64,000 bases of DNA from Escherichia phage vB_EcoM_JS09: the sequence record NC_024124.2. One strand, 5' to 3'. The notes beneath the pieces were generated by a model. The model saw only the letters and a program-made list of their open reading frames with translations. It was not told the origin of the DNA and searched no databases. Numbering within the stretch: the stretch's first letter is position 1; each line of letters opens with the position of its first letter. This document shows, piece after piece, positions 30,052-63,791 of this stretch. Made by a program: the position numbers and the translations under genes.

Positions 30052-30064
30052 TTTTCACAAAACA

Positions 30065-30094
30065 GTTTACATAAGGATGATGGTGTGTTACTAT
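30065..30094 (+). promoter_or_regulatory. T4-type early promoter (GTTTAC -35, TACTAT -10) with inverted repeat ggatgatg/catcatcc
   Basis: Motif read from sequence; upstream of 30129 CDS. Confidence 0.55.
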
Positions 30095-30128
30095 CATCCT
30101 ATCAAATAAACAACCTCAAGGAAATAAA

Positions 30129-30416
30129 ATGAAAACCTATAAAGAATTTATATCACCTGTTGCTAACGTTTCTACTCTGACTGAAGCAACCCTTACTTCC
30201 GAAGTTATTAAAGCAAACAAAGGCCGTGAGGGTAAACCAATGATTAGTCTAGCTGACGGCGAAGAAGTAAAAGGTACTGTTTACTTAGGAGACGGGTGGT
30301 CCGCTAAGAAAGATGGCGCTACTATTGTTATCTCTCCGGCTGAAGAGACTGCACTGTTTAAAGCTAAGCACATTTCTGTAGCTCAGCTTAAAATTATTGC
30401 AAAAACTCTTCTGTAA
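30129..30416 (+). CDS. internal head protein with capsid targeting sequence (ipI position)
   Basis: 95 aa; N-terminal MKTYKEFI capsid-targeting-sequence motif; adjacent to 57B where T4 ipI lies. Confidence 0.6.
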   Translation: MKTYKEFISPVANVSTLTEATLTSEVIKANKGREGKPMISLADGEEVKGTVYLGDGWSAKKDGATIVISPAEETALFKAKHISVAQLKIIAKTLL

Positions 30417-30419
30417 GTA

Positions 30420-30449
30420 GTTTACACGCTGATAGGACTATGTTATAGT
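30420..30449 (+). promoter_or_regulatory. early promoter cassette with palindrome GATAGGACTA...TAGTCCTATC around -10
   Basis: GTTTAC, 18-nt spacer, TATAGT; perfect 10-bp inverted repeat flanks the -10. Confidence 0.55.
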
Positions 30450-30487
30450 AGTCCTATCAAAACAAAATGAGTAAATGGAGAAATAAA

Positions 30488-30673
30488 ATGAAACGCGCTG
30501 AACTGATTCGTAATGTTGCTGTAGTAATTGCTTCAATGGCTTTTAGTTTTTCGATGTTTGTAGGATTCATTTGTGGACTACTGACAACAACAGAAAATTC
30601 TATCTCATTGGTAGTAGCATTTCTAATCGGCTTAATCGCTATCGTTATGGATAAAATTGCAAAAGGTGAGTAA
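30488..30673 (+). CDS. small hydrophobic membrane protein
   Basis: Track ORF 30467..; second ATG follows SD ggag in the conserved leader; 61 aa, mostly hydrophobic. Confidence 0.5.
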   Translation: MKRAELIRNVAVVIASMAFSFSMFVGFICGLLTTTENSISLVVAFLIGLIAIVMDKIAKGE

Positions 30674-30674
30674 A

Positions 30675-31037
30675 ATGAAATATCACGTATATGCGGATTT
30701 TGAAGCAAATCCTTCTAAAGACCCTGATTGTCGTTTGATACGCAGACCATTTGATTCAGCAGCTCAAGCATGGGCTTGGATTAAATCTAAATCGCCTGGT
30801 TATATGTTCTTTGAAGTAGTCGATGACAATGGTACACTGCATCCAGCCCCTACGGAAACTATTAATTTCCTTCTGTTTGCCGGTTACGACTGTTATCCTC
30901 TTGGCGGTATTGACGACCTTGTTGCTACAGGAAAAACTGTTGAGGCTCTTCGCGAAATTTGTAAAAACGCAGAAGAAAATTTTGACTGGTATCATATTGT
31001 TGATGCTCATACCTTTGAAATGGTGGAACATTCATGA
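30675..31037 (+). CDS. hypothetical protein
   Basis: Track ORF 30657.. (TTG); ATG at 30675 gives MKYHVYADFEANPSKD... Confidence 0.55.
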   Translation: MKYHVYADFEANPSKDPDCRLIRRPFDSAAQAWAWIKSKSPGYMFFEVVDDNGTLHPAPTETINFLLFAGYDCYPLGGIDDLVATGKTVEALREICKNAEENFDWYHIVDAHTFEMVEHS

Positions 31038-31324
31038 TTCTTTATGCTAAGGTAAAATCCGTTGAGAATGGATATGAAAGCGACCGAGCTGCAGCTAAAG
31101 CACTAGTCGATTACTATGGTATTTTGACCCACTTTGAAGTTGAAAAGGTTTACGTCGACCGTTCATCTTCACAGGTTAAATTACTTTGGGAAGACCGCAA
31201 ATTTAATAGTGTGAACTTTGATTTCTTTATTGAAACAGAAAAAGGTCCTCTTGAATATGATATTTTCAAGAATCCTTTGAAATTATGTTGCATTGAATAT
31301 AATTACATTAATATGGTACGGTGA
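31034..31324 (+). CDS. hypothetical protein
   Basis: 96 aa ORF, ATGA overlap with upstream gene. Confidence 0.55.
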   Translation: MILYAKVKSVENGYESDRAAAKALVDYYGILTHFEVEKVYVDRSSSQVKLLWEDRKFNSVNFDFFIETEKGPLEYDIFKNPLKLCCIEYNYINMVR

Positions 31325-33449: not shown

Positions 33450-33478
33450 GGGGACTTCGGTCCCCTTTAGGGGGTCTA
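33450..33478 (+). terminator. UUCG-tetraloop hairpin (ggggac-ttcg-gtcccc) with weak T tract
   Basis: GC stem and ttcg loop directly after the 32818 CDS stop. Confidence 0.45.
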
Positions 33479-33496
33479 TAACTTACTGAAAAAGTT

Positions 33497-33525
33497 GTTT
33501 ACTTCTTCCCTAGATGTGTTACTAT
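33497..33525 (+). promoter_or_regulatory. T4-type early promoter (GTTTAC / TACTAT)
   Basis: 17-nt spacer; upstream of 33554 CDS. Confidence 0.55.
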
Positions 33526-33553
33526 GGTCCTATTAAAACATGAGGAGAATAGT

Positions 33554-33859
33554 ATGAGTCTTTATACTGAACTGAATAAAAAATCTGAAGAATCTGCTGA
33601 AACTATTTTTAAAAACGTGCAAAAGCGTATTTTAGAAAAGATGTATAACACTGCAGCTAAAGGTGAAAAATCTTGCCGGTTCCCGATGAGGTGTTCTTCT
33701 GATTTATGCGCAAATACTATTGAATGGCTGGAAAGTGAAGGTCTTACGGTAGAGAAAAACCCGGCGATTTCTATTGACAGTGAATCATATATTAGTATTT
33801 CTTGGGATAAACCACGTACGAATGAAGGATACTACAAGTTGTTAAGTTGGAAAAATTAA
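33554..33859 (+). CDS. hypothetical protein
   Basis: Track ORF 33524..; start at MSLYTELNKK... after SD gaggag. Confidence 0.5.
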   Translation: MSLYTELNKKSEESAETIFKNVQKRILEKMYNTAAKGEKSCRFPMRCSSDLCANTIEWLESEGLTVEKNPAISIDSESYISISWDKPRTNEGYYKLLSWKN

Positions 33860-33867
33860 AAATAATG

Positions 33868-33898
33868 ATGTACAAACACCAAGGATGGTGATACTATA
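33868..33898 (+). promoter_or_regulatory. early promoter variant (ATGTAC -35, TACTAT -10)
   Basis: Same cassette family as other TGTACA-type copies. Confidence 0.4.
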
Positions 33899-33927
33899 GA
33901 CTTATCAACTACAGAGGAGTAAACAAA

Positions 33928-34092
33928 ATGACTACTTTAATTATTTGGTTCGATGAAAATGAAGAAACATACTGTGTGAATATTGGTGAAAGTCCAATGC
34001 CTGAATTTGAATCCTCAGATAAAAACTCTGTTGTATCTTGGGCTGAAGGTTATAAAGCCGCTAAAGGTGACGTTGAAATAATTTACATCTAA
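33928..34092 (+). CDS. small hypothetical protein (54 aa, below ORF-track cutoff)
   Basis: ATG after SD gaggag; MTTLIIWFDENEETYCVNIGESPMPEFESSDK... Confidence 0.4.
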   Translation: MTTLIIWFDENEETYCVNIGESPMPEFESSDKNSVVSWAEGYKAAKGDVEIIYI

Positions 34093-34110
34093 GTACGTTT
34101 ATGTTATAGT
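34081..34110 (+). promoter_or_regulatory. early promoter (ATTTAC / TATAGT)
   Basis: 18-nt spacer; upstream of 34139 CDS. Confidence 0.4.
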
Positions 34111-34138
34111 AATCACATCAAATCAAGAGGAAAATAAA

Positions 34139-34366
34139 ATGGCTAAAGTTAGTATTGATGTCGTTGATTATGAATACACCGAAGAAGTTATTCGCAACCG
34201 ACACCCTGAAGTTCATATCGATTCAGTCCAAGATTCCAAGTTCTGGACAACTGAGCTTAATCTGAGTGGTCCTTATGAAGCTGTTAAGAAGTTCATGGTT
34301 GAAGAATACTGCGAAGGCATGCACCCCGAAGACGCCAAGTTTTATGTCAATTTGATTAAAAAATAA
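34139..34366 (+). CDS. hypothetical protein
   Basis: 75 aa ORF with SD agagga. Confidence 0.55.
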   Translation: MAKVSIDVVDYEYTEEVIRNRHPEVHIDSVQDSKFWTTELNLSGPYEAVKKFMVEEYCEGMHPEDAKFYVNLIKK

Positions 34367-34436
34367 TTTACAAACTCTTGAGAGCAGAGTATAATGCTCT
34401 CGTTGGATAATAAACCACCAATTGAAAGGTAATAAT

Positions 34437-35030
34437 ATGAACACACTGAAGAAACTTGTCGAATTCATCCGCACTAAACTGGGTACTGCTATGGCTAAAA
34501 ATCTGACTGTCGAAGAACAGTATAACGCAGCTGCAGATAAGTTGATTACCCAAATCAAAGAACTAAAAACGGCTTCTGTTAAATCTATTAATGAAGAAAA
34601 ACGTATTCGCGAACTTGTTAATGAAAAGAACAAGCAAGCCGCTTCTAAGGAACGTGAAATTCGTAAGCTCCTGGCCGAAGGACAAGATGTTACCATGCAT
34701 GCTAAGCTTGGTCTTCTGTATCGTCGAACTGCCGAACAACTTAATACAAAAGCTGACGGGTATGCCGCTATGCGAATTGAAATTGCTCGTAAGGTGGTTG
34801 AACTTGACGATGCTCGTCAGAATCTGGCAATCAAACTCGAATACATTCGTGAAACTCGAGCAGCTAATGCCCTTGGTATCTCTACGGCTGATGATGTAAT
34901 TGAAATCGCTGCACTGACTAAGGTTGATATCGAAGACACTCTGACTCGTGTTGAAACGTTCAATGGCACTCCAGCTGGTGTCGAAACCACTTCTGCTGAT
35001 GTACAAGAATATATTAACTCTTTGAAATAA
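34437..35030 (+). CDS. coiled-coil protein
   Basis: Track ORF 34422..; long predicted helical / heptad-rich sequence; function unknown. Confidence 0.55.
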
Positions 35031-36040: not shown

Positions 36041-36378
36041 CCGTATGGCCTTCTCTTGGTGAGAACATTCTAATTTTTATTATGAGTATTGGCATGGGAT
36101 TTGCCTTTGGATTAGTTGGATTTCTTATTGACGGCGTTGTGTTAGGATTTATAGGGAACACTGGTGGATTCACAGACCAATGGCAGGACTTACGGTATAC
36201 CCAAGCCTTTGCATCCATCGCATCATTTTGTACTGTAGTCTATTTTTACTACGATTTTATAAACCATAACAAGAAAAATAAAAAGGTTTACGCTTCTCAA
36301 ATGATTAGTTATAATGAACTCCTAGCTAGACGTGAAAATGAAACAATAGAAAACTTTATTAAGGAATGTAGAAAATGA
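36019..36378 (+). CDS. small membrane protein, C-terminal ENFIKECRK family (member 2)
   Basis: 119 aa; hydrophobic helices; ends ...IENFIKECRK. Confidence 0.55.
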   Translation: MQKPQLLTVWPSLGENILIFIMSIGMGFAFGLVGFLIDGVVLGFIGNTGGFTDQWQDLRYTQAFASIASFCTVVYFYYDFINHNKKNKKVYASQMISYNELLARRENETIENFIKECRK

Positions 36379-36971: not shown

Positions 36972-37169
36972 ATGTCTCGTGAATTAGATTGTGCTGTACG
37001 TACCGCAGTAGCTGCTCTAGAAAACCTGTTCCAAATTGCAACAGAAGAACGCGAAGAAGTTACATTATGGATTGAAGATAACGCAGGTCTGAATCTCCAG
37101 GACGCGATCTCATTATCTAATAATAGCATTACTGTTCAAGGCTGGGTATCATCTAGTTATTCTTGCTAA
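36972..37169 (+). CDS. hypothetical protein, GWVSSSxxC C-terminal family (paralogue C)
   Basis: 65 aa; ends QGWVSSSYSC. Confidence 0.5.
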   Translation: MSRELDCAVRTAVAALENLFQIATEEREEVTLWIEDNAGLNLQDAISLSNNSITVQGWVSSSYSC

Positions 37170-37174
37170 AACAG

Positions 37175-37203
37175 TTTACAACAAGATAGGGCTATGTTAT
37201 AGT
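37175..37203 (+). promoter_or_regulatory. early promoter cassette with palindrome GATAGGGCTA...TAGTCCTATC
   Basis: GTTTAC, 17-nt spacer, TATAGT. Confidence 0.55.
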
Positions 37204-37231
37204 AGTCCTATCAAATTAAATGGAGTCTGCA

Positions 37232-37471
37232 ATGATTTATTACGAAAGTATTGGAACTAAAGTGGTTGCTAAAACCATTACTCGTGAAAAGTTTGCAAAG
37301 ATATTCGATATGCGTTATAAAAAATCTGAACACAAAGGCATCCGATTCGAAGATGCGCACTGTACAATTTGCCCTTATAATGAAGACATAAACGGTACAA
37401 TCGTTCCATTGGTAGAGGCTTCACATGATGACCTCTGGGATGAATATAATATCGCATGTCGTGAAATTTAA
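37232..37471 (+). CDS. hypothetical protein
   Basis: Track ORF 37220..; second ATG follows SD ggag. Confidence 0.5.
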   Translation: MIYYESIGTKVVAKTITREKFAKIFDMRYKKSEHKGIRFEDAHCTICPYNEDINGTIVPLVEASHDDLWDEYNIACREI

Positions 37472-37495: not shown

Positions 37496-38452
37496 ATGAT
37501 GTTAGTTATTGGTTCTCGTGCACTTCACTATCATGGTCTTATTGATTCTAGCGCTATCAAAAATAGCGATTGGGACTTTATTGCGGACCAAGGTTCTTGG
37601 AATGCATTCAAAAATCAAATGATGGGTGTATATGTTCACCAAGACAACCCTGATGTCCAAGTTTTCAAATGCTTCCATAATGGACGCGAAACTCATTTTG
37701 AAGCATATATTGTTCCGGCAATCACTAATGTTCGTGAATTAGTCGGTGAACTCACTCCTGAAGATTTCACGTCTTCTTATGACCTTTTAAAATACGCCAA
37801 GAAAAATTTGACTAAAGATCGTTTGACCGGGTTTTACTGGGCAACTCCTGAGATATGTCTTGCAATTAAAATGTCTCATCGTTTCAAGAAAAATAATCCA
37901 TTCTTTTTAAAGACTATGAACCATATTCAGTATCTTCGTGGTAAAGGTGTTACACTGAACGATGAACTTACTGAAATTATGCTGAAACGCCAGAAAGAAA
38001 CTTTGAACTATGCTCACCCAGTTCTTGACACTTCTAAAAGTGCGTTCTTTAAAGATGACATCTATACATATGACCATGATACTATTCACGAAGCCATTGC
38101 ACTAACAGACCGTCCGGCTTATACGTTTTACATGAAAGACGGTTCTGAAGTCATGACCTCACGCGAGAAGTTCGAATCGTTACCAGAAATGGTCAAATTG
38201 GCCGGCGTATATGAAGAATCATGTGTACTAGCGTTAGAACGTTCTCAGATTCCTAATAACTTTGAAATTAACCCTGAAGCCAGTTTCATGATGGCATTAG
38301 AAAAAGTCTGCACAATCATCACCTCCGGTTGGTTCCGTGAGTTCGCTTGGGAAAATTATAGCAAAGTAGTAAGTATGTACCAAAGCTTAGGACATGACGA
38401 TTACGTCAAGCGTTTCAAACAAAACTTTCATATGGTAAAACCTTTCAAATAA
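37496..38452 (+). CDS. hypothetical protein, possible nucleotidyltransferase-like N-terminus
   Basis: 318 aa; N-terminal IGSRALHYHGL...SDWDF loosely fits G-S...D-x-D; unverified. Confidence 0.6.
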   Translation: MMLVIGSRALHYHGLIDSSAIKNSDWDFIADQGSWNAFKNQMMGVYVHQDNPDVQVFKCFHNGRETHFEAYIVPAITNVRELVGELTPEDFTSSYDLLKYAKKNLTKDRLTGFYWATPEICLAIKMSHRFKKNNPFFLKTMNHIQYLRGKGVTLNDELTEIMLKRQKETLNYAHPVLDTSKSAFFKDDIYTYDHDTIHEAIALTDRPAYTFYMKDGSEVMTSREKFESLPEMVKLAGVYEESCVLALERSQIPNNFEINPEASFMMALEKVCTIITSGWFREFAWENYSKVVSMYQSLGHDDYVKRFKQNFHMVKPFK

Positions 38453-38464
38453 TTTCACAAAACA

Positions 38465-38494
38465 GTTTACAAGGTCTGTAGTTGTTGATACTAT
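38465..38494 (+). promoter_or_regulatory. early promoter cassette (GTTTAC / TACTAT)
   Basis: Followed by conserved leader caaaacaaatgagtgaatggagatataaaaATG. Confidence 0.55.
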
Positions 38495-38532
38495 AGACCT
38501 ATCAAAACAAATGAGTGAATGGAGATATAAAA

Positions 38533-38733
38533 ATGACTACTTTGAATAAACGTTTCGGTAAAGCTAAACCTGGTTGTGCAGCAAAACGTCGTTATGTTTT
38601 CGCTCAGTTAGAAGATGTAGAGTATCAGATTAATCAAGTTCACATTACTGGTATCGAGCCTATGTGTGGCCTTGAAGCTCTTCGTGAAGTTCGTGATGGG
38701 TATCGTCGTGACATCGAAGAAATGTCAAAATAA
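38533..38733 (+). CDS. hypothetical protein
   Basis: Track ORF 38515..; second ATG after SD ggag; 66 aa. Confidence 0.5.
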   Translation: MTTLNKRFGKAKPGCAAKRRYVFAQLEDVEYQINQVHITGIEPMCGLEALREVRDGYRRDIEEMSK

Positions 38734-38734
38734 G

Positions 38735-38763
38735 TGTACAAACTGATAGGGCTATATTATAGT
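38735..38763 (+). promoter_or_regulatory. early promoter cassette (GTGTAC / TATAGT) with palindrome GATAGGGCTA...TAGTCCTATC
   Basis: Same cassette family. Confidence 0.5.
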
Positions 38764-38789
38764 AGTCCTATCAACTTGAGGAGAATATT

Positions 38790-39095
38790 ATGAAATTAAC
38801 AGAAACCAACCGAATTGGTCTTTTAACAATACTTGCATCACCTTTTTACGCAGCCCTTTCTGTTGCAGTATTACAAAAGGCTTACGATATGGATGGTGTT
38901 CCTGGTTTTATATTCTTATCGCCGTTTTTGCTATTCGTTGGAGCATTGTTATTATATGCCACGACTGGTTTTGACCATAATGTCTGGGTCAATTATAAAC
39001 GTAAATTGTCTGAAGAAGAACACGCAGAAGCTCGTAAAAAAGCTATTGAATCTACCAATCTAGAAAATTTCATTAAAGAATGTCGAGGAAAATAA
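38790..39095 (+). CDS. small membrane protein, C-terminal ENFIKECRGK family (member 3)
   Basis: 101 aa; two TM helices; ends NLENFIKECRGK. Confidence 0.6.
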   Translation: MKLTETNRIGLLTILASPFYAALSVAVLQKAYDMDGVPGFIFLSPFLLFVGALLLYATTGFDHNVWVNYKRKLSEEEHAEARKKAIESTNLENFIKECRGK

Positions 39096-41756: not shown

Positions 41757-41757
41757 T

Positions 41758-41788: not shown

Positions 41789-41814
41789 CATTCATCAACT
41801 ACTTGGAGGAAATT

Positions 41815-42351: not shown

Positions 42352-42354
42352 ACG

Positions 42355-52363: not shown

Positions 52364-52393
52364 GTGTACATGCTTTTAGGATATGTTATTATA
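52364..52393 (+). promoter_or_regulatory. early promoter cassette (GTGTAC / TATTAT) with conserved leader
   Basis: Followed by cgaaacgaaatgagtaaattggagaataaaATG. Confidence 0.5.
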
Positions 52394-52430
52394 GACCTAT
52401 CGAAACGAAATGAGTAAATTGGAGAATAAA

Positions 52431-53411
52431 ATGTTCAACGTTCAAATCAAAAAAGGTATCTATCGTAATAACGAAATCTCTGGTTCTTATGTTGCCACAA
52501 AGACCTGGTTCCCGGCAAAGCTTAATCCTGAATGTTCCCACTTAGGTGATGGTAAAATTTTCGTTATGATTGATGGTTCTGAACGTGGAGTATGGGTCTT
52601 CAAATCAGACATCGTAATGGAAGGAGTTGAGACGTCACCAGTTGCAGTTGTTGAAAGCACTGAAGATATGAAAACTCGTATCAACAAACGCTTTAAAGTA
52701 ATGAACATGATGACGAATGGCATTATCGATGGCAAAATTCGTTCACTCATTATTTCAGGTGCAGCTGGTATTGGTAAGACGTATTCTCTGGATAAAGCAC
52801 TTAATAATGCTAATGATAATGGTTTCATCAAATACAAAAGCATTAATGGTAAAATCTCCGGTATTGGCCTTTACGAACAACTTTGGCTCAACCGTGATGC
52901 AGACAGCGTTCTCTTAATCGACGACGTTGACGTATTCTCAGATATGGACATCTTGAACCTTCTTAAAGCAGCATTAGATACTGGAGATAAACGCAAAGTT
53001 TGCTGGAGCACTGCGTCATCTTATCTCGATGATAAGGGTATTGATAAAGAATTTGAGTTTGAAGGTACTATCGTTTTCATTACAAACGTTGATATCGATA
53101 AAGAGTTAGAACGCGGTTCGAAACTTGCCCCACACCTTCAAGCTTTAGTATCTCGTTCAGTGTATCTCGACCTCGGAGTACACTCTAATGAAGAGATTAT
53201 GGTTCGAGTTGAAGATGTAATATTATCTACTGACATGATGCAGAAACGTGGTCTGACTGATGCAGAAACGTATAAAGCATTGTCCTGGATGAAGGCTAAC
53301 GTATCTCGTCTTCGCAATGTATCATTACGTACGGCTCTTTATGTAGCAGATTTTATTTCAACTGATAAAGATGGTTGGGAGGAAATCTCTGAAGTAACTT
53401 TACTGAAATAA
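52431..53411 (+). CDS. AAA+ family ATPase
   Basis: Walker A ISGAAGIGKTY, Walker B VLLIDDVDVF, sensor-1-like FITNVD; about 110-aa N-terminal domain precedes the ATPase core. Confidence 0.7.
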   Translation: MFNVQIKKGIYRNNEISGSYVATKTWFPAKLNPECSHLGDGKIFVMIDGSERGVWVFKSDIVMEGVETSPVAVVESTEDMKTRINKRFKVMNMMTNGIIDGKIRSLIISGAAGIGKTYSLDKALNNANDNGFIKYKSINGKISGIGLYEQLWLNRDADSVLLIDDVDVFSDMDILNLLKAALDTGDKRKVCWSTASSYLDDKGIDKEFEFEGTIVFITNVDIDKELERGSKLAPHLQALVSRSVYLDLGVHSNEEIMVRVEDVILSTDMMQKRGLTDAETYKALSWMKANVSRLRNVSLRTALYVADFISTDKDGWEEISEVTLLK

Positions 53412-53549: not shown

Positions 53550-53837
53550 ATGGATTTTATGCAAAAAATTAAAGCCGCAGTCGAACTCTATGCTCATCGT
53601 ATGGTTAGTTCTACAATGCAATATAGCGAGGAGGTTCGCCAGGACTCTTCCTTGAAAGGAAAAACTAAAGCCTTAATTACCTTAGATTGTTTGCAAAAGA
53701 ATGCCATAGAGATGCTCCAGTACGACAAGGGTGTATATAAGAAAGAACAGGAAGAGAAACTTAAATCTGAAAAATTACAAAAAATCCCGAAGTCTGTTTG
53801 GTTCAGTGGAAAAAATACCGAAAAAAGTTTCTTTTAG
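53550..53837 (+). CDS. hypothetical protein
   Basis: 95 aa; SD aagagga 8 nt upstream. Confidence 0.5.
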   Translation: MDFMQKIKAAVELYAHRMVSSTMQYSEEVRQDSSLKGKTKALITLDCLQKNAIEMLQYDKGVYKKEQEEKLKSEKLQKIPKSVWFSGKNTEKSFF

Positions 53838-53839
53838 TT

Positions 53840-53868
53840 GTTTACAAGGTCTATGATTATGTTATTAT
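53840..53868 (+). promoter_or_regulatory. early promoter cassette (GTTTAC / TATTAT)
   Basis: 17-nt spacer; inverted repeat ggtctat...atagacc. Confidence 0.55.
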
Positions 53869-53895
53869 AGACCTATCAACTACTGGAGGTAAAAC

Positions 53896-54423
53896 ATGAA
53901 CGCTAAAGATATTTTCAACCTGGTAAATTATAACGACGGTAAATTTAAATCTGAAGCACAAAGCAAGTTCTTTAATGACGTTGCTTATGGTAACGAGATT
54001 ACCGTAGACGGAGGTCAGATTTTCAAATCTCGCTGGAATTGGATTGCTATCATCGATTCAGTTGGAATTGTGGAAGTCTACAAAAACACTAACAAAAAAC
54101 GTACATTATTCTGGTCTCGTGAAACTAACGAGCAGTACAAAAAGGATAAAGCATCTCGTTTATCCAAAGTAACCCAGGAAGATATCGAGTTTATCAAGAA
54201 AGATATCGAGATGTACGAAAATTTAATCGCTGAAGACCAGGCAGTACTCGATAAGTTTGATGAAATTAAAGCTTCTCGTGAAATCCCTGACTTCATGAAA
54301 GAAACAGTAAACGAACGATACGCTCTCACTTCAGAACGTATTGCAAACTATACAAAACAGAAAGCAGAACGTATTAGTACTCTTCGGAAATTTGAAGAAC
54401 GTTTAAAGACGGTTCACGCATAA
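53896..54423 (+). CDS. hypothetical protein
   Basis: 175 aa; C-terminal half predicted helical. Confidence 0.55.
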   Translation: MNAKDIFNLVNYNDGKFKSEAQSKFFNDVAYGNEITVDGGQIFKSRWNWIAIIDSVGIVEVYKNTNKKRTLFWSRETNEQYKKDKASRLSKVTQEDIEFIKKDIEMYENLIAEDQAVLDKFDEIKASREIPDFMKETVNERYALTSERIANYTKQKAERISTLRKFEERLKTVHA

Positions 54424-54485: not shown

Positions 54486-55481
54486 ATGAGCATTACATCT
54501 GATGCGGTAAAACATGAAATTAACGGTTTATGTGCTTCACAGATTAAAGTGTGGTTTAAAGACCATAATGATCGCAGAGCACTTAATTATGAGCAAATTG
54601 CTATCCAAGTTCATCAATTATTGACTAGTAAATTTGATTTTCATATGCCGTCTGAAATCTATACTAATCTACCGCGAGCGCTTATTAAAGCGTGTAAAGG
54701 TTACGGAAAATCAATGGCCGATGGAATCTTCAGCGCGCTGAATAAACTTAACGTTCTGTCGATGATTAACTCTAATAACATCCTGCGTAATCTAGGACGT
54801 ACTGATTTGTTCGGTCGTGAACAGTGTAAAATGCCTTTGAAATGGATTGTTGCTCATCTTAACGAGAACCAAACACGTTTTATGGCCGTATCAGCACGCT
54901 TACAAATGGGCCTAGATCGTCAGATGAACTTTAAAACTCATCCACGTTATTCAGGTTCAACAGACTTTTATAAATGTGAGCTTCAAAAGGTTGCAGGTAA
55001 AACTGTCTTAGTAGTTCGTGTAACGTTTGAAGGACGACGTCAAGGATATTTTGACCTAATCGGCTCTGGTCTTAAACATTGTGGATTTATTGACGAAGTT
55101 GTTATAAAGCGAGACGGCATTGGATATCGTATTGGATATGTTTGTACTCTTAAAGAAGAGATTTCAGGTCCAGCACCAGGACTAAAAGACGTTAGATATA
55201 AAGACGAGCTCGTTGAAGAAATAAAAGAAGTTGAATATGATATCAACCAAGAAGATGCTCTTAAAGACCTTATTGATGAACTAAACCAAGACGTTATTCC
55301 GGTTCAAAAATTTGAATCAAAACATGCTGAGCAAATCAAATACTTTGAAGCTTTGATTAACGAACTTAATGTAACTATTCAACAGACTGATGATGAAATC
55401 TCACGATTAGCAGGCTTAAACGGTAAAAATAAAACAGAACGAGCTAATCTTATTCAAGTAGTAAAACTTCTTAAGGAATGA
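54486..55481 (+). CDS. hypothetical protein with C-terminal coiled coil
   Basis: 331 aa. Confidence 0.6.
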   Translation: MSITSDAVKHEINGLCASQIKVWFKDHNDRRALNYEQIAIQVHQLLTSKFDFHMPSEIYTNLPRALIKACKGYGKSMADGIFSALNKLNVLSMINSNNILRNLGRTDLFGREQCKMPLKWIVAHLNENQTRFMAVSARLQMGLDRQMNFKTHPRYSGSTDFYKCELQKVAGKTVLVVRVTFEGRRQGYFDLIGSGLKHCGFIDEVVIKRDGIGYRIGYVCTLKEEISGPAPGLKDVRYKDELVEEIKEVEYDINQEDALKDLIDELNQDVIPVQKFESKHAEQIKYFEALINELNVTIQQTDDEISRLAGLNGKNKTERANLIQVVKLLKE

Positions 55482-55511
55482 TGTACAACCAAGGATGGTT
55501 GGAGTATAATA
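55482..55511 (+). promoter_or_regulatory. early promoter (ATGTAC / TATAAT) with ccaaggatggttgg element
   Basis: Near-identical cassette repeated at 56477. Confidence 0.5.
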
Positions 55512-55536
55512 AATTTTTCAACATGAGGAATATAAA

Positions 55537-56472
55537 ATGGCTTCTATTACACGTAGAGAACTTATCAAAGAATTTACCTCGAACGCATATACCCCAGGTC
55601 CTAATCCTATCCGTATGCCTGTAAAGACTCCTGAAGAGATTGAGGAAATCTGTTCATATTATGGGATTACTTCTCGTAAGTTTACTCAATTTGAATGCGT
55701 TACTAACACACCCGTTAAAGAGTTCATTAAAAATGGTGAGTTCAGCCGTTTATTAGCCAAACAGAAACTTCGTAATTTTTGTATTGGCGGTGAAGGACAA
55801 TATTTCGCTAAGCAGTTCAGGAATAACCTTAACAATCTGATGGCCATTGCTTCTCGTATTCGTCCTCAAGCAATTAACATGAAACATTTGAAATATACTT
55901 ACGATAAGTTAGAAATCATGGTTATCAGTGAGAACGAGTTCACTCTTACGTATAAACCTAAGAATGATAACGTTGCTCGTGTATTCCACCAAGCGTTGGA
56001 AGTGTTAGGTGATAATATCCACCAGATTAAAGCAATTTATTCTCGTGAGCTTAATATTATCAACCCTATCAAGAATAAGGGCCATATCGCTATCCAGGCT
56101 CGTGTATCTATTGGTAAAAAGGTTCCTGCGCCATGGTGGCACAAAGACTCTGAATACTATCAAAATCTTAAAAAGGAAAATGCCACGTTCGAAGCGTCAA
56201 TTACTACAACCCCAATTGGCAATGCTGAAGTTCAAGGTGCATATTTTACTGCTCCATCTATATACACTTCACCGTCGACTAAACTGGAAATCTCTAACGG
56301 TCTTCTTCCTGCCGAAGATTACCATTACAATCAAATCAAGGCCACTATGGACAAACTGTCTGTTGAACTTGACAAAGCACAAGCTAAGCTTCGTGATGCT
56401 CAAAGTGTTGTAACGAATCTCCAGTTGCAGTATTCTAAACTTTTTAACGCAATGAATGCATTAAAATCATAA
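55537..56472 (+). CDS. hypothetical protein with C-terminal coiled coil
   Basis: 311 aa. Confidence 0.6.
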   Translation: MASITRRELIKEFTSNAYTPGPNPIRMPVKTPEEIEEICSYYGITSRKFTQFECVTNTPVKEFIKNGEFSRLLAKQKLRNFCIGGEGQYFAKQFRNNLNNLMAIASRIRPQAINMKHLKYTYDKLEIMVISENEFTLTYKPKNDNVARVFHQALEVLGDNIHQIKAIYSRELNIINPIKNKGHIAIQARVSIGKKVPAPWWHKDSEYYQNLKKENATFEASITTTPIGNAEVQGAYFTAPSIYTSPSTKLEISNGLLPAEDYHYNQIKATMDKLSVELDKAQAKLRDAQSVVTNLQLQYSKLFNAMNALKS

Positions 56473-56476
56473 AATA

Positions 56477-56506
56477 GTTTACAACCAAGGATGGTTGGAG
56501 TATAAT
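56477..56506 (+). promoter_or_regulatory. early promoter (GTTTAC / TATAAT) with ccaaggatggttgg element
   Basis: 18-nt spacer. Confidence 0.55.
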
Positions 56507-56534
56507 GAATCTATCTTAACGAGAGGAAAATATT

Positions 56535-57485
56535 ATGACACGTTCACATTACATTGATTATTTTGCAGGTCTTATCGCTAACGTTCATGCTCAGCGCGCT
56601 ACTGGTGCACTAGGATTTGATGTTCCACACCGAGATGTAGTAAGTGGTATTCTTCGAGATTTTGGCACATACACAGGTCAAGAAAATCATATCTGTAAAG
56701 ATACTCAGAATGCGTATTCTCATTCATTAGGGACACTGCTTCATTGGTTCAAACGTTCTCGTTTATTATCTTCTACTGTGGCTCGTGATAACATTAAAAA
56801 CTTTATGAAGCCGAGCTTTATTAAATCTGTGACATCTAAAACTGATTTGGTTGAATTTACTATTATTAACGATGTTAAAAAGACTCATTTGGCTGATTGG
56901 TTATCTACCATTCCTGAAACTAAATTTGCTGATAAATTTGCTTGTGAATTCAATAACCAAGTGAATATGCTTTTTAAACATTCACGTAAATTATTCACAG
57001 GCGGTGATGGTCGTACAAATAAAGTTCATGTTAAAGATTGGGTTACTGCAGTATTCAAACCAACTGGTAATGGTAACGCATCATTGTCAATTGATATCCA
57101 GGTTCCTTATTACTACTCACGTAATCTCGGTACCATGAAAGCCGAAGAAATTAATAAGCGCAACAAAACCGTTCGTTCGCTGTCTTATAAACTTCGTATG
57201 ATGTTACAGACTATGGATGTTGTTGAAATGTTCAGCGAAACTGAAGATAATGGTTCAATGTTATTCAGTTCTCGTATTCAAATTAAGCTGAAGAACCCTA
57301 ATACGTATAAACCTAAGCCTATTAAAGAGCCTAAAGCAGAAAAAGTTGATAACTTAAGAGAAGAACGCGAATATCTCAAATCTCGTCTGAAAGAAGTCGA
57401 AGCCCAGATTGCAGAACAAACTAAATCGTTAAAAGCTCTGAATGCGAAAGCGGATGGCTTACGAAATGCCATTGAGGTGTTATAA
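56535..57485 (+). CDS. hypothetical protein with C-terminal coiled coil
   Basis: 316 aa. Confidence 0.6.
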   Translation: MTRSHYIDYFAGLIANVHAQRATGALGFDVPHRDVVSGILRDFGTYTGQENHICKDTQNAYSHSLGTLLHWFKRSRLLSSTVARDNIKNFMKPSFIKSVTSKTDLVEFTIINDVKKTHLADWLSTIPETKFADKFACEFNNQVNMLFKHSRKLFTGGDGRTNKVHVKDWVTAVFKPTGNGNASLSIDIQVPYYYSRNLGTMKAEEINKRNKTVRSLSYKLRMMLQTMDVVEMFSETEDNGSMLFSSRIQIKLKNPNTYKPKPIKEPKAEKVDNLREEREYLKSRLKEVEAQIAEQTKSLKALNAKADGLRNAIEVL

Positions 57486-58812: not shown

Positions 58813-58861
58813 ACCGTGGTATTCGGCTCGATGGGAGACAGTCGAGCCAGACGTCGAAACA

Positions 58862-58891
58862 GTTTACAATGACGAAGAAACGTGTTATGAT
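58862..58891 (+). promoter_or_regulatory. early promoter (GTTTAC / TATGAT-like)
   Basis: Preceded by hairpin ggctcga...tcgagcc at about 58824-58847. Confidence 0.4.
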
Positions 58892-58940
58892 GAACCTTCA
58901 ATAAATGAATTAATTGATATGGAAATGGGAAGAGATTATT

Positions 58941-59111
58941 ATGCAAGTTAAATTATTATACCGTTTATTAAAAAATGGCAAGCATGATTGGTATTTGCTT
59001 ATTAAAACCGATCCGAATTTTTTCTCTGGACAACCATTTACAGTTCGTCCTACTAAACGTCAGCTTCGCAAAGCTAAACGTTCTCATCGTAACTTTTATA
59101 GAGAATATTGA
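58941..59111 (+). CDS. small basic protein, RPTKR family (paralogue 1)
   Basis: ...FTVRPTKRQLRKAKRSHRNFYREY. Confidence 0.45.
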   Translation: MQVKLLYRLLKNGKHDWYLLIKTDPNFFSGQPFTVRPTKRQLRKAKRSHRNFYREY

Positions 59112-62041: not shown

Positions 62042-62508
62042 ATTATGATAGATTTTATCCTTGCGATTTTGTGAATGGCCCTGGTTGCAGGGTCGTTCTT
62101 TTCGTTACAGGTTGTTTGCATAAATGCGAAGGGTGTTATAATAAATCAACATGGAACGCTAGAAATGGTATTCCATTCACGGGTGAAACACTAGAGCAAT
62201 TAATTGAATGTTTGAATAATGATTATATAGAAGGATTAACTATAACTGGAGGAGACCCTCTCTATCCCGATAACAGAGATGTTGTTCATTGCATTGCTCA
62301 AACAGTAAAAAATCTTTATCCCAATAAAAGCATTTGGTTGTGGACAGGATATAAGTTTGAAGATATTAAACAACTAGAAATGCTTAAATATGTTGATGTT
62401 ATTATTGATGGGAAGTATGAGAAAAATCTTCCGACTAAAAAGATGTGGCGAGGATCAGATAATCAGCGACTTTGGTCAAATACCGATGGGGTGTGGAAAC
62501 ATGATTAA
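62038..62508 (+). CDS. nrdG: anaerobic RNR activating enzyme (radical SAM)
   Basis: 156 aa; CxxxCxxC motif CLHKCEGC. Confidence 0.95.
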   Translation: MNYDRFYPCDFVNGPGCRVVLFVTGCLHKCEGCYNKSTWNARNGIPFTGETLEQLIECLNNDYIEGLTITGGDPLYPDNRDVVHCIAQTVKNLYPNKSIWLWTGYKFEDIKQLEMLKYVDVIIDGKYEKNLPTKKMWRGSDNQRLWSNTDGVWKHD

Positions 62509-62618
62509 ATTGAATTACATTATGGATACTATAAATGATATGATTTTTCGTTTTGGTCCAGAATTTTATTCGCAGTATAGTTTGGTGTTTATCAATGCTT
62601 AGTTAATTAAGGGTAAAT

Positions 62619-62834
62619 ATGTATAAATTTCGTAAAGGTTTAGCTGATTTTCTTACAACTGTAACGTTCTTTTTGTTTATGGCAGTTGGAGCTATTTTTC
62701 TTATTCCTTTTACTGTTGTATTTTTCTTGATTAGTTTAATTTCTCCGGAAAAGGGTTTATCCTCCAGCGAATTCAATGAACGTTTGGACAAAATTACTAA
62801 TAAACTGAATTCTGTTCTTGATAAAAAGGCTTAA
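62619..62834 (+). CDS. small membrane protein
   Basis: 71 aa; central hydrophobic stretch. Confidence 0.5.
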   Translation: MYKFRKGLADFLTTVTFFLFMAVGAIFLIPFTVVFFLISLISPEKGLSSSEFNERLDKITNKLNSVLDKKA

Positions 62835-62836
62835 TT

Positions 62837-63154
62837 ATGATTAGTTTTGAGCGGTATGTGGTAGAGAGTTGGAAAGGTTTTGATATGTTCGGTAATGACT
62901 ATTATTTTTACGAATGTAATCTAAATCCTAGTTTTTGGGCTGGACGTGAACGAGATCTCGAAGAAATTAATGCTCGTGCCGAATTGTTAGGTGAACTGCC
63001 TACGGTTTATTTTACCTTTGATGAATCTGGATTTGTTATCCAGGTTTATTTTCCTGAAGAAAACTCTGGTGAGGATTCTGTTAATCCTCCTTATTGGGCT
63101 TACCAAGGAATTATTTCTCGTGGAACAAAACTCGAACTTAAAGAACAAGATTGA
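62837..63154 (+). CDS. hypothetical protein
   Basis: 105 aa. Confidence 0.55.
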   Translation: MISFERYVVESWKGFDMFGNDYYFYECNLNPSFWAGRERDLEEINARAELLGELPTVYFTFDESGFVIQVYFPEENSGEDSVNPPYWAYQGIISRGTKLELKEQD

Positions 63155-63443
63155 AATTTATGGCATCCCTGAAGAAGTAGGACGTTGTCCAGGATGTTAT
63201 ACTGTTACAAAACTTTTAAAGGAGCTCAATGCTCCTTATACATTTTATAAAGTCCTCACTAATAATGGTAAGATTGAATACGACCGTCCTTTAATCGTAT
63301 CTCTTGCTAAACGTGCAGGATTCACTTCACTTAATATTCGTTATCCTGTCATATTTTTAAATGATAAGAAACAAAAGAATATTGCAGAGTTTAAAAAGTC
63401 CTTGATTTCATTAGGATACGACTCTGATATCATAGAAGATTGA
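63120..63443 (+). CDS. glutaredoxin-like redoxin (NrdH-like)
   Basis: KIEIYGIPEEVGRCPGCYTVTKLL thioredoxin-fold CxxC; start uncertain (no in-frame ATG; GTG at 63120 proposed). Confidence 0.55.
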   Translation: MEQNSNLKNKIEIYGIPEEVGRCPGCYTVTKLLKELNAPYTFYKVLTNNGKIEYDRPLIVSLAKRAGFTSLNIRYPVIFLNDKKQKNIAEFKKSLISLGYDSDIIED

Positions 63444-63551
63444 CCAGGTGCCGCCTGGTCTTCTTTATCTCATTTCTAATATAATCCATTGGAATCTTCA
63501 CTTCACTATCTCCTTGTGCCCCTCTCAAATCGAAAATATTTTCATAAAACA

Positions 63552-63580
63552 GTTTACATCCTCAATAGATGTGTTAAGAT
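63552..63580 (+). promoter_or_regulatory. early promoter (GTTTAC / TAAGAT-like)
   Basis: Upstream of 63609 CDS. Confidence 0.4.
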
Positions 63581-63608
63581 TAAACCATCTACTATAGAGG
63601 AAAATAAA

Positions 63609-63791
63609 ATGACAATTGAAGATAAAGAAATTAAGGTCGACCAGTACTATTCTGTCAACGGTAATGCAGTACAGATAACCAGAGTTTCAAGCCTGGATGT
63701 TTGGTACCGTTCAATCAAATATCCAGAAATTGGTGAAATGCTTTGTGACCGTGGTATCTTCTGTTCAATTGCGAAGGAAATTAAGCCATGA
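63609..63791 (+). CDS. small hypothetical protein
   Basis: Track ORF 63489..; start at MTIEDKEIKV... after SD agagga. Confidence 0.45.
   Translation: MTIEDKEIKVDQYYSVNGNAVQITRVSSLDVWYRSIKYPEIGEMLCDRGIFCSIAKEIKP

Follow-up and report, generated by a model that had tools for sequence, protein, structure and literature searches.

Early-promoter cassettes of PeSL type, with predicted read-through stems, in a T4-like Mosigvirus phage

One short promoter-bearing module, often containing an inverted repeat, recurs ahead of genes between 30 and 64 kb of the window, the 64,000-nucleotide stretch of Escherichia phage vB_EcoM_JS09 (NC_024124.2) analyzed in this study. What are these cassettes, and what do their repeats do? 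The window belongs to a Mosigvirus (RB69/JS09 group; 97% identity to Mosigvirus phages) and extends from gene 1 to nrdH, the hyperplastic early region of T4. The cassettes are probably (at roughly 80%) PeSL-type early-expression elements, which would combine a promoter, a stem on read-through RNA, masking of the Shine-Dalgarno sequence (SD) in one class (class B), and recombination. Such elements are of a known kind, already described in 2010 and 2014. They would switch on small genes right after infection and mark gene-swap sites among T4-like phages.

Copy number and promoter anatomy

A strict pattern ([GA]T[TG]TAC, 17-18 nt, and TAnnnT agreeing with TATAAT at 4/6 or more positions) had 22 matches on the + strand and a single one on the - strand at 30-64 kb, and two at 1-30 kb. 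Shuffled controls gave 1.34 ± 1.12 matches, with a maximum of 7 (300 dinucleotide shuffles). The initial annotation had counted at least 20 copies at 30-64 kb, which the 22 matches against about 1.3 in shuffles bear out, and all its coordinates were correct on rechecking. Its statement that almost every small gene has a cassette was overstated, since only about 20 of the 86 gene junctions, roughly 1 in 4, carry one. A position-weight-matrix scan (at least 10 bits) returned 29 matches on the + strand and none on the - strand; across 46 T4-like loci, the strict pattern occurred 381 times on the gene strand vs once on the opposite strand. The -35 is of the TGTACA type in four cassettes, and two of the 22 are weak copies that lie inside genes (36286 and 58862). 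The stem classes in the following list are defined in the next section.

Cassette 1: 30043..30131, + strand, class A; -35 30065-30071, -10 30089-30094, stem 30074-30083/30091-30100 (AGGATGATGG/CTATCATCCT), start codon 30129; heads an internal-head-protein-like gene
Cassette 2: 30398..30490, + strand, class A; -35 30420, -10 30444-30449, 12-bp stem 30430-30441/30448-30459, RegB-type SD GGAGAAATAAA, start codon 30488
Cassette 3: 33475..33556, + strand, weak class B; -35 33497, -10 33520-33525, arms 33501-33517/33538-33553, start codon 33554
Cassette 4: 33846..33930, + strand, class C; ATGTACA -35 at 33868, small hairpin CACCA-AGGA-TGGTG (33877-33890) entirely within the spacer, start codon 33928
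Cassette 5: 34059..34141, + strand, without convincing stem; -35 34081 (ATTTACA), -10 34105-34110, start codon 34139 (frd.3-like gene)
Cassette 6: 34344..34439, + strand, class A; -35 34366, -10 34390-34395, stem 34376-34386/34395-34407 with core GAGAGC/GCTCTC, start codon 34437
Cassette 7: 36264..36377, + strand, weak, without stem; -35 36286, -10 36310-36315; inside gene 36082-36378
Cassette 8: 37152..37234, + strand, class A; -35 37174, -10 37198-37203, stem 37185-37195/37202-37212 with one G:U pair, start codon 37232
Cassette 9: 38443..38535, + strand, class A; -35 38465, stem 38472-38481/38491-38500 (AGGTCTGTAG/CTATAGACCT), start codon 38533; left border of mobile module 38465-38795
Cassette 10: 38712..38792, + strand, class A; GTGTACA -35 at 38734, stem 38739-38755/38762-38778, start codon 38790; right border of the same module
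Cassette 11: 41736..41817, + strand, class B (anti-SD), heads denV; -35 41758, -10 41782-41787, arms 41764-41781/41792-41811, start codon 41815
Cassette 12: 42333..42417, + strand, without spacer stem; -35 42355 (GTTTACG), -10 TATAAT 42379-42384, start codon 42415
Cassette 13: 43039..43118, + strand, IP-type promoter, homologous to the T4 ipIII/ipII promoter; arms 43065-43084/43093-43112 extend to the SD
Cassette 14: 45279..45360, + strand, class B, heads regB; -35 45301, -10 45324-45329, perfect 14-bp helix 45307-45320/45339-45352 covering SD GAGGAG, start codon 45358
Cassette 15: 48932..49012, + strand, class B; -35 48954, -10 48977-48982, arms 48960-48975/48989-49005, start codon 49010
Cassette 16: 49646..49728, + strand, class A; -35 49668, 13-bp stem 49677-49689/49696-49708, compensatory vs cassette 2, SD matching the RegB consensus 11/11, start codon 49726
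Cassette 17: 52342..52433, + strand, degenerate class A; GTGTACA -35 at 52364, -10 52387-52392, RegB-type SD (11/11), start codon 52431
Cassette 18: 53818..53898, + strand, class A; -35 53840, stem 53847-53856/53865-53874, start codon 53896
Cassette 19: 55459..55539, + strand, class C; ATGTACA -35 at 55481, spacer hairpin ACCAAGGATGGT, start codon 55537
Cassette 20: 56455..56537, + strand, class C; -35 56477, spacer hairpin ACCAAGGATGGT, start codon 56535
Cassette 21: 58840..58943, + strand, doubtful; intragenic consensus match, -35 58862, -10 58886-58891, without stem, weak SD
Cassette 22: 63530..63611, + strand, class B; -35 63552, -10 63575-63580 (TAAGAT), arms 63559-63575/63583-63601 covering the SD, start codon 63609

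The cassettes run from an A/T-rich upstream part (73% A/T vs 63% background) through GTTTAC, TGn (17/22) and the -10 to a conserved start region, SD and ATG, in agreement with the T4 early-promoter consensus proposed for them earlier; the orthologous T4 promoters of regB, denV and ipII have an identical layout. T4 early promoters have been described as having UP/-35/TGn/-10 architecture, and these 'uber' promoters share with the cassettes the GTTTAC -35, the TGn-extended -10, the A/T-rich upstream part and extra conserved positions (PMC2988021). The window contains direct homologues of the T4 regB, denV and ipII/ipIII promoters, and no sequence-level difference separates T4 early promoters from the cassettes. 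From sequence, T4 homology and the literature, we infer that the cassettes are all strong early promoters of the sigma-70 type, which host RNA polymerase would fire at once after infection.

Downstream of the putative promoter, a leader and an SD, frequently a predicted target of the RegB nuclease (GGAGRAYARAA), would precede the ATG. GGAG-type SDs were found in 12/22 cassette genes vs 4/65 other genes. The RegB consensus was matched at 11/11 positions at 49668 and 52364, and at 9-10/11 positions at 30420, 33497 and 38734. The RegB/S1 site, which must be single-stranded (PMC1702504), is matched by the SD plus spacer of many cassettes; it is one component and not the whole cassette, and a GGAA SD is expected to make a cassette a poor RegB substrate. 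The recurrent leader reported at about 30459, 38500 and 52403 (...AAACAAATGAGTAAATGGAGAAATAAAATG) is present at all three sites, ahead of unrelated proteins.

Stems in the promoter spacer

A stem with its 5' arm inside the promoter spacer was found in 18/22 cassettes. The stem straddles the -10 in class A (n=9), the spacer arm pairs with the SD in class B (n=6), and the stem lies entirely inside the spacer in class C (n=3). The initial annotation described three perfect repeats around the -10; those at 30431-30458 (GATAGGACTA...TAGTCCTATC) and 49679-49706 (both arms altered, GGTAGGACTA/TAGTCCTACC) are perfect, whereas that at 37185-37212 contains one G:T wobble (GATAGGGCTA). A fourth copy lies at 38745-38772. 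Both arm pairs in which the 5' arm was said to be complementary to the SD were found, namely TTCTCCTCTAGTTG/CAACTAGAGGAGAA at 45307-45320/45339-45352 and TTCCTCCAA/TTGGAGGAA at 41764-41772/41803-41811.

The inverted repeats exceed the chance level. Pairing of each spacer with its own downstream region averaged -11.7 kcal/mol vs -8.6 ± 0.65 for mismatched cassettes (0/20000 permutations), and 374 cassettes contained 104 strong class A stems (29 expected) and 73 class B stems (41 expected). The helix was kept in 24 of 26 distinct regB orthologue sequences with differing arm sequences, and arms co-vary among paralogues and over 40 T4-like genomes, T4 regB, denV and ipII included. In covariance-model alignments, which are fitted to structure and so bias pair counts towards it, class B had 88.1% of cells paired, 12/14 pairs compensatory and 93 double changes vs 24.7 ± 4 in shuffles; the corresponding class A values were 91.1%, 9/12, and 77 vs 20.4 ± 4.9. 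At the level of these comparisons, the predicted stem structure is shown by covariation. Stem mismatches were G:T rather than A:C in 29 vs 10 cases (p = 0.003), a bias that partly contains shared ancestry between sequences and that suggests structure at the RNA level. Class membership, A or B, changes between orthologous promoters; the orthologues of cassette 18 in T4-like phages are class B.

Read-through RNA and the Shine-Dalgarno sequence

The 5' arm lies upstream of the transcription start, so the stem could form only on read-through RNA from an upstream promoter and would be absent from the cassette's own transcript. For the class B cassettes, among them those of denV and regB and those at 48954 and 63552, the SD itself would serve as the 3' arm. 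The computed probability that the SD is unpaired was 0.24 on read-through RNA vs 0.59 on the gene's own transcript in class B, and 0.52 vs 0.56 in class A. Sequestration of the SD on read-through RNA, as first proposed, is therefore upheld for class B, together with its 12 compensatory pairs, and not for the other classes, as class A and class C stems leave the SD untouched. The prediction for class B read-through RNA is that it cannot be translated and is shielded from RegB; its silence would confine the gene to an immediate-early pulse from its own promoter. In class A, computed folding left SD accessibility unchanged by the stem, no U-tract was found after the stems, and RegB-type SDs were not linked to the class (44% vs 43%), none of which points to a function for class A. 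Classes A and C may, with some uncertainty, attenuate read-through; the sole experimental precedent is one RB49 PeSL.

Hairpins that sequester a ribosome-binding site and hold a promoter in their 5' arm are known from T4 e, soc, 49, I-TevI/II/III and segB and Aeh1 mobE (PMC3014915, PMC2988022). Class B follows the same logic, with the SD in a helix on long transcripts and a proximal promoter that starts in the loop, producing a transcript without the 5' arm. The known hairpins, however, have late promoters and postpone expression to late times (a review states 'all late genes'; PMC3014915, PMC2988022), whereas the internal promoter of class B is an early sigma-70 type, so the predicted effect is the opposite, with expression confined to the first minutes. 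This early-promoter anti-SD switch is possibly the sole new angle. Versions of the e and gene 49 hairpins occur in the window at 40960-40992 and 59722-59756.

The PeSL authors proposed that the stems are transcription terminators or attenuators that damp upstream early read-through and insulate the cassettes transcriptionally. This is possible as a general role, though we consider it doubtful. An RB49 PeSL stem-loop between a strong promoter and lacZ cut expression like rrnB T1 (PMC2839356), but that assay did not distinguish termination from changes in translation or stability. The placement of the stems at gene borders and the lack of another obvious target for classes A and C favor this reading, and the switching between classes A and B suggests a common role; yet no U-run follows any of the 15 class A and B stems (the next 8 nt hold at most 4 T, usually 0-2), and class B loops of 10-22 nt are much above terminator loop size. 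An intrinsic-terminator scan gave none in cassettes; it found canonical terminators at the cassette-free junctions 35039-35056 and 46723-46741.

It is unlikely that the repeats work as DNA, either as operators for a dimeric protein or as cruciforms or hairpins drawing recombination enzymes such as endonuclease VII. Their location on the -10 and spacer would suit a repressor, for example a factor that shuts off early promoters, a process whose mechanism is incompletely understood (PMC3014915); four cassettes have the near-identical arm sequence GATAGGACTA, and Arbiol 2010 speculated that the stem is a recombination-protein target (PMC2839356). However, arms vary widely across copies and orthologues with pairing retained, unlike a sequence-specific protein site, and the sense-strand mismatch bias fits a single strand (RNA) and not a symmetric duplex. 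Class B arms, moreover, are 10-22 nt apart, and one of them is the SD.

Equally improbable is translational coupling, in which the upstream gene's ribosome would open the class B SD on read-through RNA. The upstream stop codon lies 8-11 nt ahead of the anti-SD arm in three of the six class B cassettes (41758, 43061 and 45301), so terminating ribosomes could partly open the helix, and the SD pairs with the first bases of the 5' arm. Judged from established footprint sizes, however, a terminating ribosome would span about 9 nt past the stop, enough to unpair no more than 1-2 bp of the 14-17-bp helices; the stop is more than 40 nt away in the other three cassettes, and T4 hairpins of like architecture are off-switches (PMC3014915, PMC2988022). 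That the repeats of ordinary promoters are a by-product of consensus or recent duplication is very improbable: the 3' arm consists in part of consensus sequence (AGTCCTATC) and some cassettes are recent paralogues (cassettes 19 and 20, at 55481 and 56477, have 27 identical bases in common), but own-vs-other pairing tests (genome, 46 T4-like loci, orthologous groups) and compensatory changes contradict it.

Recombination at cassettes and relation to known elements

Recombination at cassettes, claimed in the initial annotation, is supported by three kinds of product: chimeric cassettes in relatives, breakpoints enriched at cassette junctions, and a cassette-bounded module placed elsewhere in another genus. 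The gene at 38533-38733 is flanked by two cassettes here, and four relatives have one chimeric cassette; phage moha has a chimera of the upstream half of cassette 20 (56477) and the downstream half of cassette 19 (55481). Breakpoints fell at 12/19 cassette junctions vs 17/67 other junctions (odds ratio 5.0, p = 0.005), an enrichment no longer clear among long intergenic gaps alone (12/19 vs 3/7). Among the matches listed, module 38465-38795 is about 90-95% identical in Tequatrovirus (94.6% in locus L048), where it sits at the nrdC locus in a backbone merely 72-82% identical, at a site homologous to the position of cassette 17 (52364). Cassettes have exact runs of up to 27 bp in common (control maximum 11 bp). 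Identical runs of 15-27 bp, in one orientation and at gene borders, would let cassettes serve as crossover points, by which 'promoter core plus gene' modules may be deleted, replaced or moved; we infer this mechanism from its products. In several indels no cassette takes part, and 4-5-bp microhomology at the SD or ATG is used instead.

The PeSL identity proposed earlier agrees with the defining sequence features of Arbiol 2010 (PMC2839356). Shared with PeSLs are the AT-rich region, sigma-70-type early promoter, stem-loop, SD and ATG (PMC2839356, PMC4122927), stems over the -10 or between -35 and -10 (both in the Arbiol 2010 list, PMC2839356), location in hyperplastic regions ahead of function-unassigned small genes, and a gene between two elements in one phage where a relative has a single chimeric element. 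The differences are that those papers do not cover Mosigvirus (PMC2839356, PMC4122927), the phage group of these cassettes; that RB49 PeSLs have GGGG/CCCC stems and those here are richer in A/T; and that stems of the T4/PST pair lie just upstream of the promoter (PMC4122927), whereas those here and in T4 regB, denV and ipII lie inside it. The SD-pairing class is missing from PMC2839356, which never mentions translation and lists five stem positions, none with an SD arm.

Integron attC gene cassettes offer a functional analogy only: they too are small single-gene modules bounded by a repeated structured element, with excision and insertion at element copies and possible circular intermediates. 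Unlike them, the repeat here is a promoter and carries its own expression signals along, and exchange is thought to proceed by the phage's general homologous recombination; to our knowledge, PeSL-type cassettes, unlike integrons, have no dedicated integrase. Position 36286 (cassette 7) is a recurrent homology breakpoint among relatives, and cassette 13 is followed by a 43-aa ORF at 43116 that resembles the DenV N-terminus.

Putative early-promoter cassettes and the gene map

Between 30 and 64 kb, a strict early-promoter pattern ([GA]T[TG]TAC, 17-18 nt, then TAnnnT with at least 4/6 matches to TATAAT) matched 22 times on the + strand and once on the - strand, and it matched 2 times in 1-30 kb; in 300 dinucleotide shuffles it found 1.34 ± 1.12 matches (maximum 7). 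A first-pass consensus scan found 28 + strand and 4 - strand matches, and a two-block weight matrix at a threshold of at least 10 bits gave 29 and 0 positions, respectively. A generic sigma-70 scan was non-discriminating (80 matches vs 65 ± 9 in shuffles), so a T4-specific -35 box is needed. The strict pattern was adopted because a loose one-mismatch pattern was weakly enriched at 18-nt spacing (47 vs 27) and not enriched at 17-nt spacing (26 vs 28).

The 22 copies are named here by their -35 coordinate. In twenty of them, the terminal SD and ATG are consistent with the gene annotation of the collinear phage TU01, and two (36286 and 58862) are intragenic and weak. The initial annotation had placed the inverted repeats and the leader correctly throughout, but its statement that the module precedes almost every small gene was overstated: about 20 of the 86 gene junctions carry a cassette, roughly one per four genes. 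The approximately 85 mostly uncharacterised genes of the region would thereby be organised into about 20 early transcription units. The repeats had also been called perfect; the copy at 37185 departs from this by one G:T wobble, and the copy at 49679 has both arms altered in a compensatory manner. A fourth copy of the same repeat lies at 38745-38772. A half cassette at about 53523-53550, with a -35-like ATGTACA followed by SD and ATG and without a -10 box, resembles the "degraded PeSLs" of Comeau 2014 (PMC4122927).

The stretch 30000-40000 is 97% identical to Shigella phage SSE1, TU01, HX01 and about 110 further records, and 40000-64000 gives a similar result; by classification, these relatives are Mosigvirus (Straboviridae, Tevenvirinae). 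TU01 is collinear with the window (window coordinate = comparison locus L001 + 27999), and its annotation served as the gene map. Every gene from 28.6 kb on lies on the + strand, in this order:

From 28.6 kb (start of the series), + strand: dNMP kinase (gene 1), 57-like genes, internal head protein, two tRNAs, frd.3, nudE
Next in the series, + strand: lysozyme e, denV, regB, vs, tk, rI, nrdC.x series
End of the series, + strand: pin, 49, nrdD, nrdG, nrdH

This series forms the large "hyperplastic" early region found in T4-type genomes. The GC skew changes sign near 26 kb. The tRNA genes, tRNA-Met (CAT) and tRNA-Arg (TCT), occupy 31924-32078 with 3 nt between them, and in one relative (locus L044) the two are separated by an insertion of about 875 bp that includes an ORF. 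They were the sole Rfam matches; the T4 RefSeq record annotates no promoter features. The nrdD/nrdG gap (61982-62038) is without the 831-bp homing-endonuclease gene that relatives carry (L044 32428-33307; L046 33962-34841).

When aligned, the copies read ...AAAACA GTTTACA (spacer) TGT TATAGT AGTCCTATCAA..., followed by leader, SD and ATG; the weight-matrix alignment gives the consensus ...AAAACAGTTTACA-N-TGTTATAGTAGTCCTATCAA. The 25 nt upstream are 73% A+T, vs 63% region-wide, and TGn precedes the -10 box in 17/22 copies. Promoters of the T4 early class serve unmodified host RNA polymerase from the onset of infection and fall silent after 2-3 min. They have a UP/-35/TGn/-10 architecture with extra conserved positions (Hinton, PMC2988021), and the literature treats the T4 regB promoter as typical of the class (PMC3014915). 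The proposed fit to the T4 early consensus was borne out: UP, a GTTTAC-type -35, TGn, -10 and the extra conserved positions are all present. The cassettes thus qualify as putative sigma-70-like early promoters, their -35 and -10 boxes being separated by about 17 bp. At 54428-54460, before the gene at 54486, lies a probable MotA-dependent middle promoter (aCGCTTTA, 13 bp, TATAAT) whose spacer contains a small ACCC...GGGT hairpin.

Potential RegB targets, in the form of GGAG-type SDs, cluster in the genes that immediately follow a cassette (12/22 cassette genes vs 4/65 other + strand genes in 30-64 kb). The RegB/S1 cleavage consensus is a single-stranded GGAG with an A-rich stretch, GGAGRAYARAA (PMC1702504). 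Cassettes 49668 and 52364 match it at 11/11 positions, and 5 GGAG-bearing cassettes match at least 9/11 positions, as candidate sites. The recurring leader pointed out in the initial annotation is real, and is accounted for by a GGAG SD with an A-rich tail approaching this consensus. Paralogy of the genes behind it was ruled out, as the three genes encode unrelated proteins; an upstream ORF or N-terminal extension was likewise ruled out, as the reading frame is not conserved between copies.

Promoter, AT-rich upstream part, stem, and 3' SD with start codon are the parts of the promoter-early stem-loop element (PeSL; Arbiol 2010, PMC2839356), and all occur in the window. So does the siting of PeSLs in hyperplastic regions, near genes differing between relatives (22 copies in 30-64 kb vs 2 in 1-30 kb). 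With every sequence-level defining feature of Arbiol 2010 and Comeau 2014 present, the suggested PeSL identity holds; judged by sequence, the cassettes are a known element class, here in the genus Mosigvirus, in which the PeSL papers do not describe it.

Stem classes and covariation among T4-like genomes

The stretch from the -35 box to the ATG of each cassette was folded. Stems were found in 18/22 copies, and 4 copies had none. The stems fall into three classes:

Class A, 9 copies (one degenerate): 10-15-bp stem straddling the -10 box, 5' arm in the spacer, 3' arm from inside the -10 box to about +4 or beyond
Class B, 6 copies (one weak): 5' arm directly after the -35 box, 3' arm containing the SD
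Class C, 3 copies: small hairpin (ACCA-AGGA-TGGT) entirely in the spacer

PeSL stems have been described between the boxes, overlapping the -35 or -10 box, upstream, and just downstream; class B goes beyond the positions of Arbiol 2010 in that its 3' arm extends to the SD. Separating SD-pairing stems from those straddling the -10 box adds to the published description. The class C motif, CCAAGGATGG, is found at 33877-33890, 55488-55500 and 56484-56496, and also in comparison loci L026-L034 (cluster 13, near 18033-19214); its AGGA loop is constant and its outer pair varies in a compensatory manner (A-T, T-A, C-G). Pairing is specific to each cassette: the spacer paired with its own downstream part at a mean of -11.7 kcal/mol, vs -8.6 ± 0.65 with the downstream parts of other cassettes (0/20000 permutations).

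The comparison set comprised 42 tk-flanking loci from diverse T4-like contigs, four long Mosigvirus regions and part of T4. Over this set, the cassette rule matched 381 times on the gene strand and once on the opposite strand. Strong class A pairing occurred in 104/374 copies vs 29 expected from mismatched pairs within each genome, and class B pairing in 73 of 374 vs 41 expected on the same basis. When cassettes were grouped by downstream protein, orthologous promoters were seen to keep paired stems of differing sequence. For regB (cassette at 45279-45360 in the window), a helix of -12 kcal/mol or stronger is kept in 24/26 distinct orthologues, with the arms CTAGTTG/CAACTAG, CTTGACTG/CAGTTAAG (T4), CTTTATG/CATAAAG, GTAAG/CTTAC, TTTTAGT/ACTAAAA and ATTTG/CAAAT; the energy was -19.0 for own arms vs -12.7 across orthologues (0/5000 permutations). 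In T4 itself, the anti-SD helix of regB has 18 bp, denV carries the stem TCTCCTGTAG/CTACAGGAGA, and at ipII there is a class A stem of 14 bp.

A plain MAFFT alignment of the regB promoters returned no RNAalifold structure because the arms are out of register; covariance models were therefore built from the window copies, and all matches were aligned.

Covariance-model alignments of the stems, which are fitted to the model structure and hence biased towards it
Measure; class B; class A
Matches; 52; 45, all on the gene strand
Cells paired (shuffled); 88.1% (72.0%); 91.1% (75.9%)
Pairs with compensatory changes; 12/14; 9/12
Double-change cells (shuffled); 93 (24.7 ± 4.0); 77 (20.4 ± 4.9)
Covariation score (shuffled; slid partners); 0.474 (0.176; at most 0.108); 0.476 (0.215; at most 0.131)

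The same picture emerged from the slid-partner controls and from the alignment-free energy tests. Sense-strand mismatches inside stems were G:T in 29 cases vs A:C in 10 (p = 0.003). An RNA structure with G:U pairs should show such a G:T excess; a symmetric DNA element should not. Across genera, selection maintains the pairing of the stems on one strand, seemingly at the RNA level. The PeSL papers do not contain cross-genus covariation evidence of this kind.

Predicted effects of the stems on read-through RNA

Since the 5' arm precedes every plausible start site, the stems would form only on read-through RNA, given the inferred start. In folding predictions, the probability that a class B SD is unpaired was 0.24 on read-through RNA vs 0.59 on the cassette's own transcript; for denV (cassette at 41736-41817), regB and cassette 48954, it was 0.11-0.12 vs 0.58-0.62. 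Class A showed no difference (0.52 vs 0.56). Thus, the earlier proposal that read-through transcripts hide the ribosome-binding site (RBS) is retained for class B alone. Translation is not discussed anywhere in the PeSL paper (PMC2839356).

A comparable arrangement is documented for T4 genes e, soc, 49, I-TevI-III and segB, where an RBS hairpin with a promoter inside it has been described for late promoters (PMC3014915, PMC2988022). As in the e/soc/49/I-TevI switch, class B is predicted to place the SD in a helix on long transcripts, as indicated by both the computed accessibility (0.24) and the covariation. The proximal promoter of that switch starts in the loop or 3' arm, leaving the 5' arm out, and the inferred class B start would do the same. 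However, the internal T4 promoter is a late one (TATAAATA) serving a late gene, and that of class B belongs to the early sigma-70 type; the cassette thus resembles this family in how it works, and falls outside it as described (PMC2988022). The window also contains known T4 late-promoter RBS switches, in which a late promoter (TAAATA/TATAAATA) is followed by an SD-covering hairpin, at 40960-40992 (upstream of lysozyme e, CCTCC...GGAGG) and 59722-59756 (upstream of gene 49, endonuclease VII, ACCCTTA...TAAGGGT).

Class B may be the early-promoter version of the RBS hairpin, which would confine translation, and the access of RegB, to the opening minutes of infection. Under such a gate, regB and denV mRNA would be translatable and RegB-cleavable only if transcribed from the early promoter of the respective gene, and read-through or middle-mode transcripts of both genes would be silent. 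At roughly even odds, some 15-20% of early promoters in Tevenvirinae, including T4, double as riboregulators of this "immediate-early only" type, the anti-SD arm in the spacer being kept by compensatory evolution. If true, this gate is the mirror image of the late-promoter hairpin switches, and it is absent from the PeSL papers. Confirmation would provide a simple T4 rule for which early genes belong to the first minutes of infection and, for phage engineers, a compact, portable "pulse-expression" part plus safe insertion points.

Orthologous promoters alternate between class A and class B, a switching that hints at a common purpose. Class A stems may be a second RNA-level device, interchangeable with the anti-SD arm. 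No target for class A was found when U-tracts, terminator positions and association with RegB-type SDs were examined. Arbiol 2010 regarded the PeSL stem as a terminator/attenuator and proposed mini-circles formed by recombination of neighbouring elements; lacZ attenuation measured for one RB49 PeSL stem is the sole experimental precedent for class A (PMC2839356). A role in protecting 3' ends once RegB has cut at the following SD may still apply but gained no support, class A stems showing no association with RegB-type SDs (44% vs 43%, p = 0.79). Intrinsic termination was judged unlikely, as no stem is followed by a U-tract. Canonical intrinsic terminators, with a GC-rich stem and then a T-run, occur at 35039-35056 and 46723-46741, both at cassette-free gene junctions; the former reads as a terminator on both strands. 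For T4 specialists, the promoters and the shuffling are unsurprising; the early-promoter anti-SD switch and the class A stems might merit experiment.

Recombination at cassettes

Comparison of the window with seven Mosigvirus loci revealed about 40 indel or replacement events. Breakpoints fell at 12/19 cassette junctions vs 17/67 others (odds ratio 5.0, p = 0.005), in a test made conservative by scoring cassette 63552 as non-cassette. With long intergenic gaps only, the counts were 12/19 cassette vs 3/7 non-cassette, there being just seven such gaps of the latter kind. Exact shared runs of 15-27 bp link 13 cassette pairs, against a control maximum of 11 bp.

Chimeric cassettes and a moved module are stronger evidence for recombination than these counts. 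In the window, the gene at 38533-38733 has cassettes 38465 and 38734 on either side; four relatives lack this exact -35-to--35 unit and carry a single chimeric cassette, in which the upstream half of the left copy is joined to the core of the right one. Phage moha has another chimera, joining the upstream half of 56477 to the downstream half of 55481. The module 38465-38795, running from the G of GTTTACA to just beyond the next start codon, recurs at 94.6% identity in one T4-like contig, flanked by homologues of the genes at 51024 and 52431 in the window; this is the position of cassette 52364, in a backbone 72-82% identical. Among 215 matching phage records, about a quarter have the module at the Mosigvirus locus, about 40% have that locus without the module, and about a quarter have the module only, adjoining nrdC.10 (Tequatrovirus, e.g. 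Ozark, slur03, MLF4). The module adds a clear example of a gene bordered by cassettes that has moved from one locus and genus to another. Deletion and insertion elsewhere are the products expected of mini-circle events, and both were seen.

The suggestion that cassettes serve as shuffling sites is thus upheld by the relatives' chimeras, the breakpoint excess and the module at its other locus. Cassettes explain gene-content differences among 95-97% identical therapeutic and environmental coliphages, and a cassette map yields predicted borders of gain, loss and transfer. Two clean deletions in relatives, of whole genes at 47161-47572 and 63612-63788, involve no cassette and show microhomology of 4-5 bp at the SD or ATG (GAACC and ATGA). 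At 43116-43244, behind a homologue of the T4 ipIII/ipII promoter, a 43-aa ORF with a DenV-like N-terminus resembles the scar of a recombination event; at this site, relatives carry either an IpIII-like gene or a direct junction.
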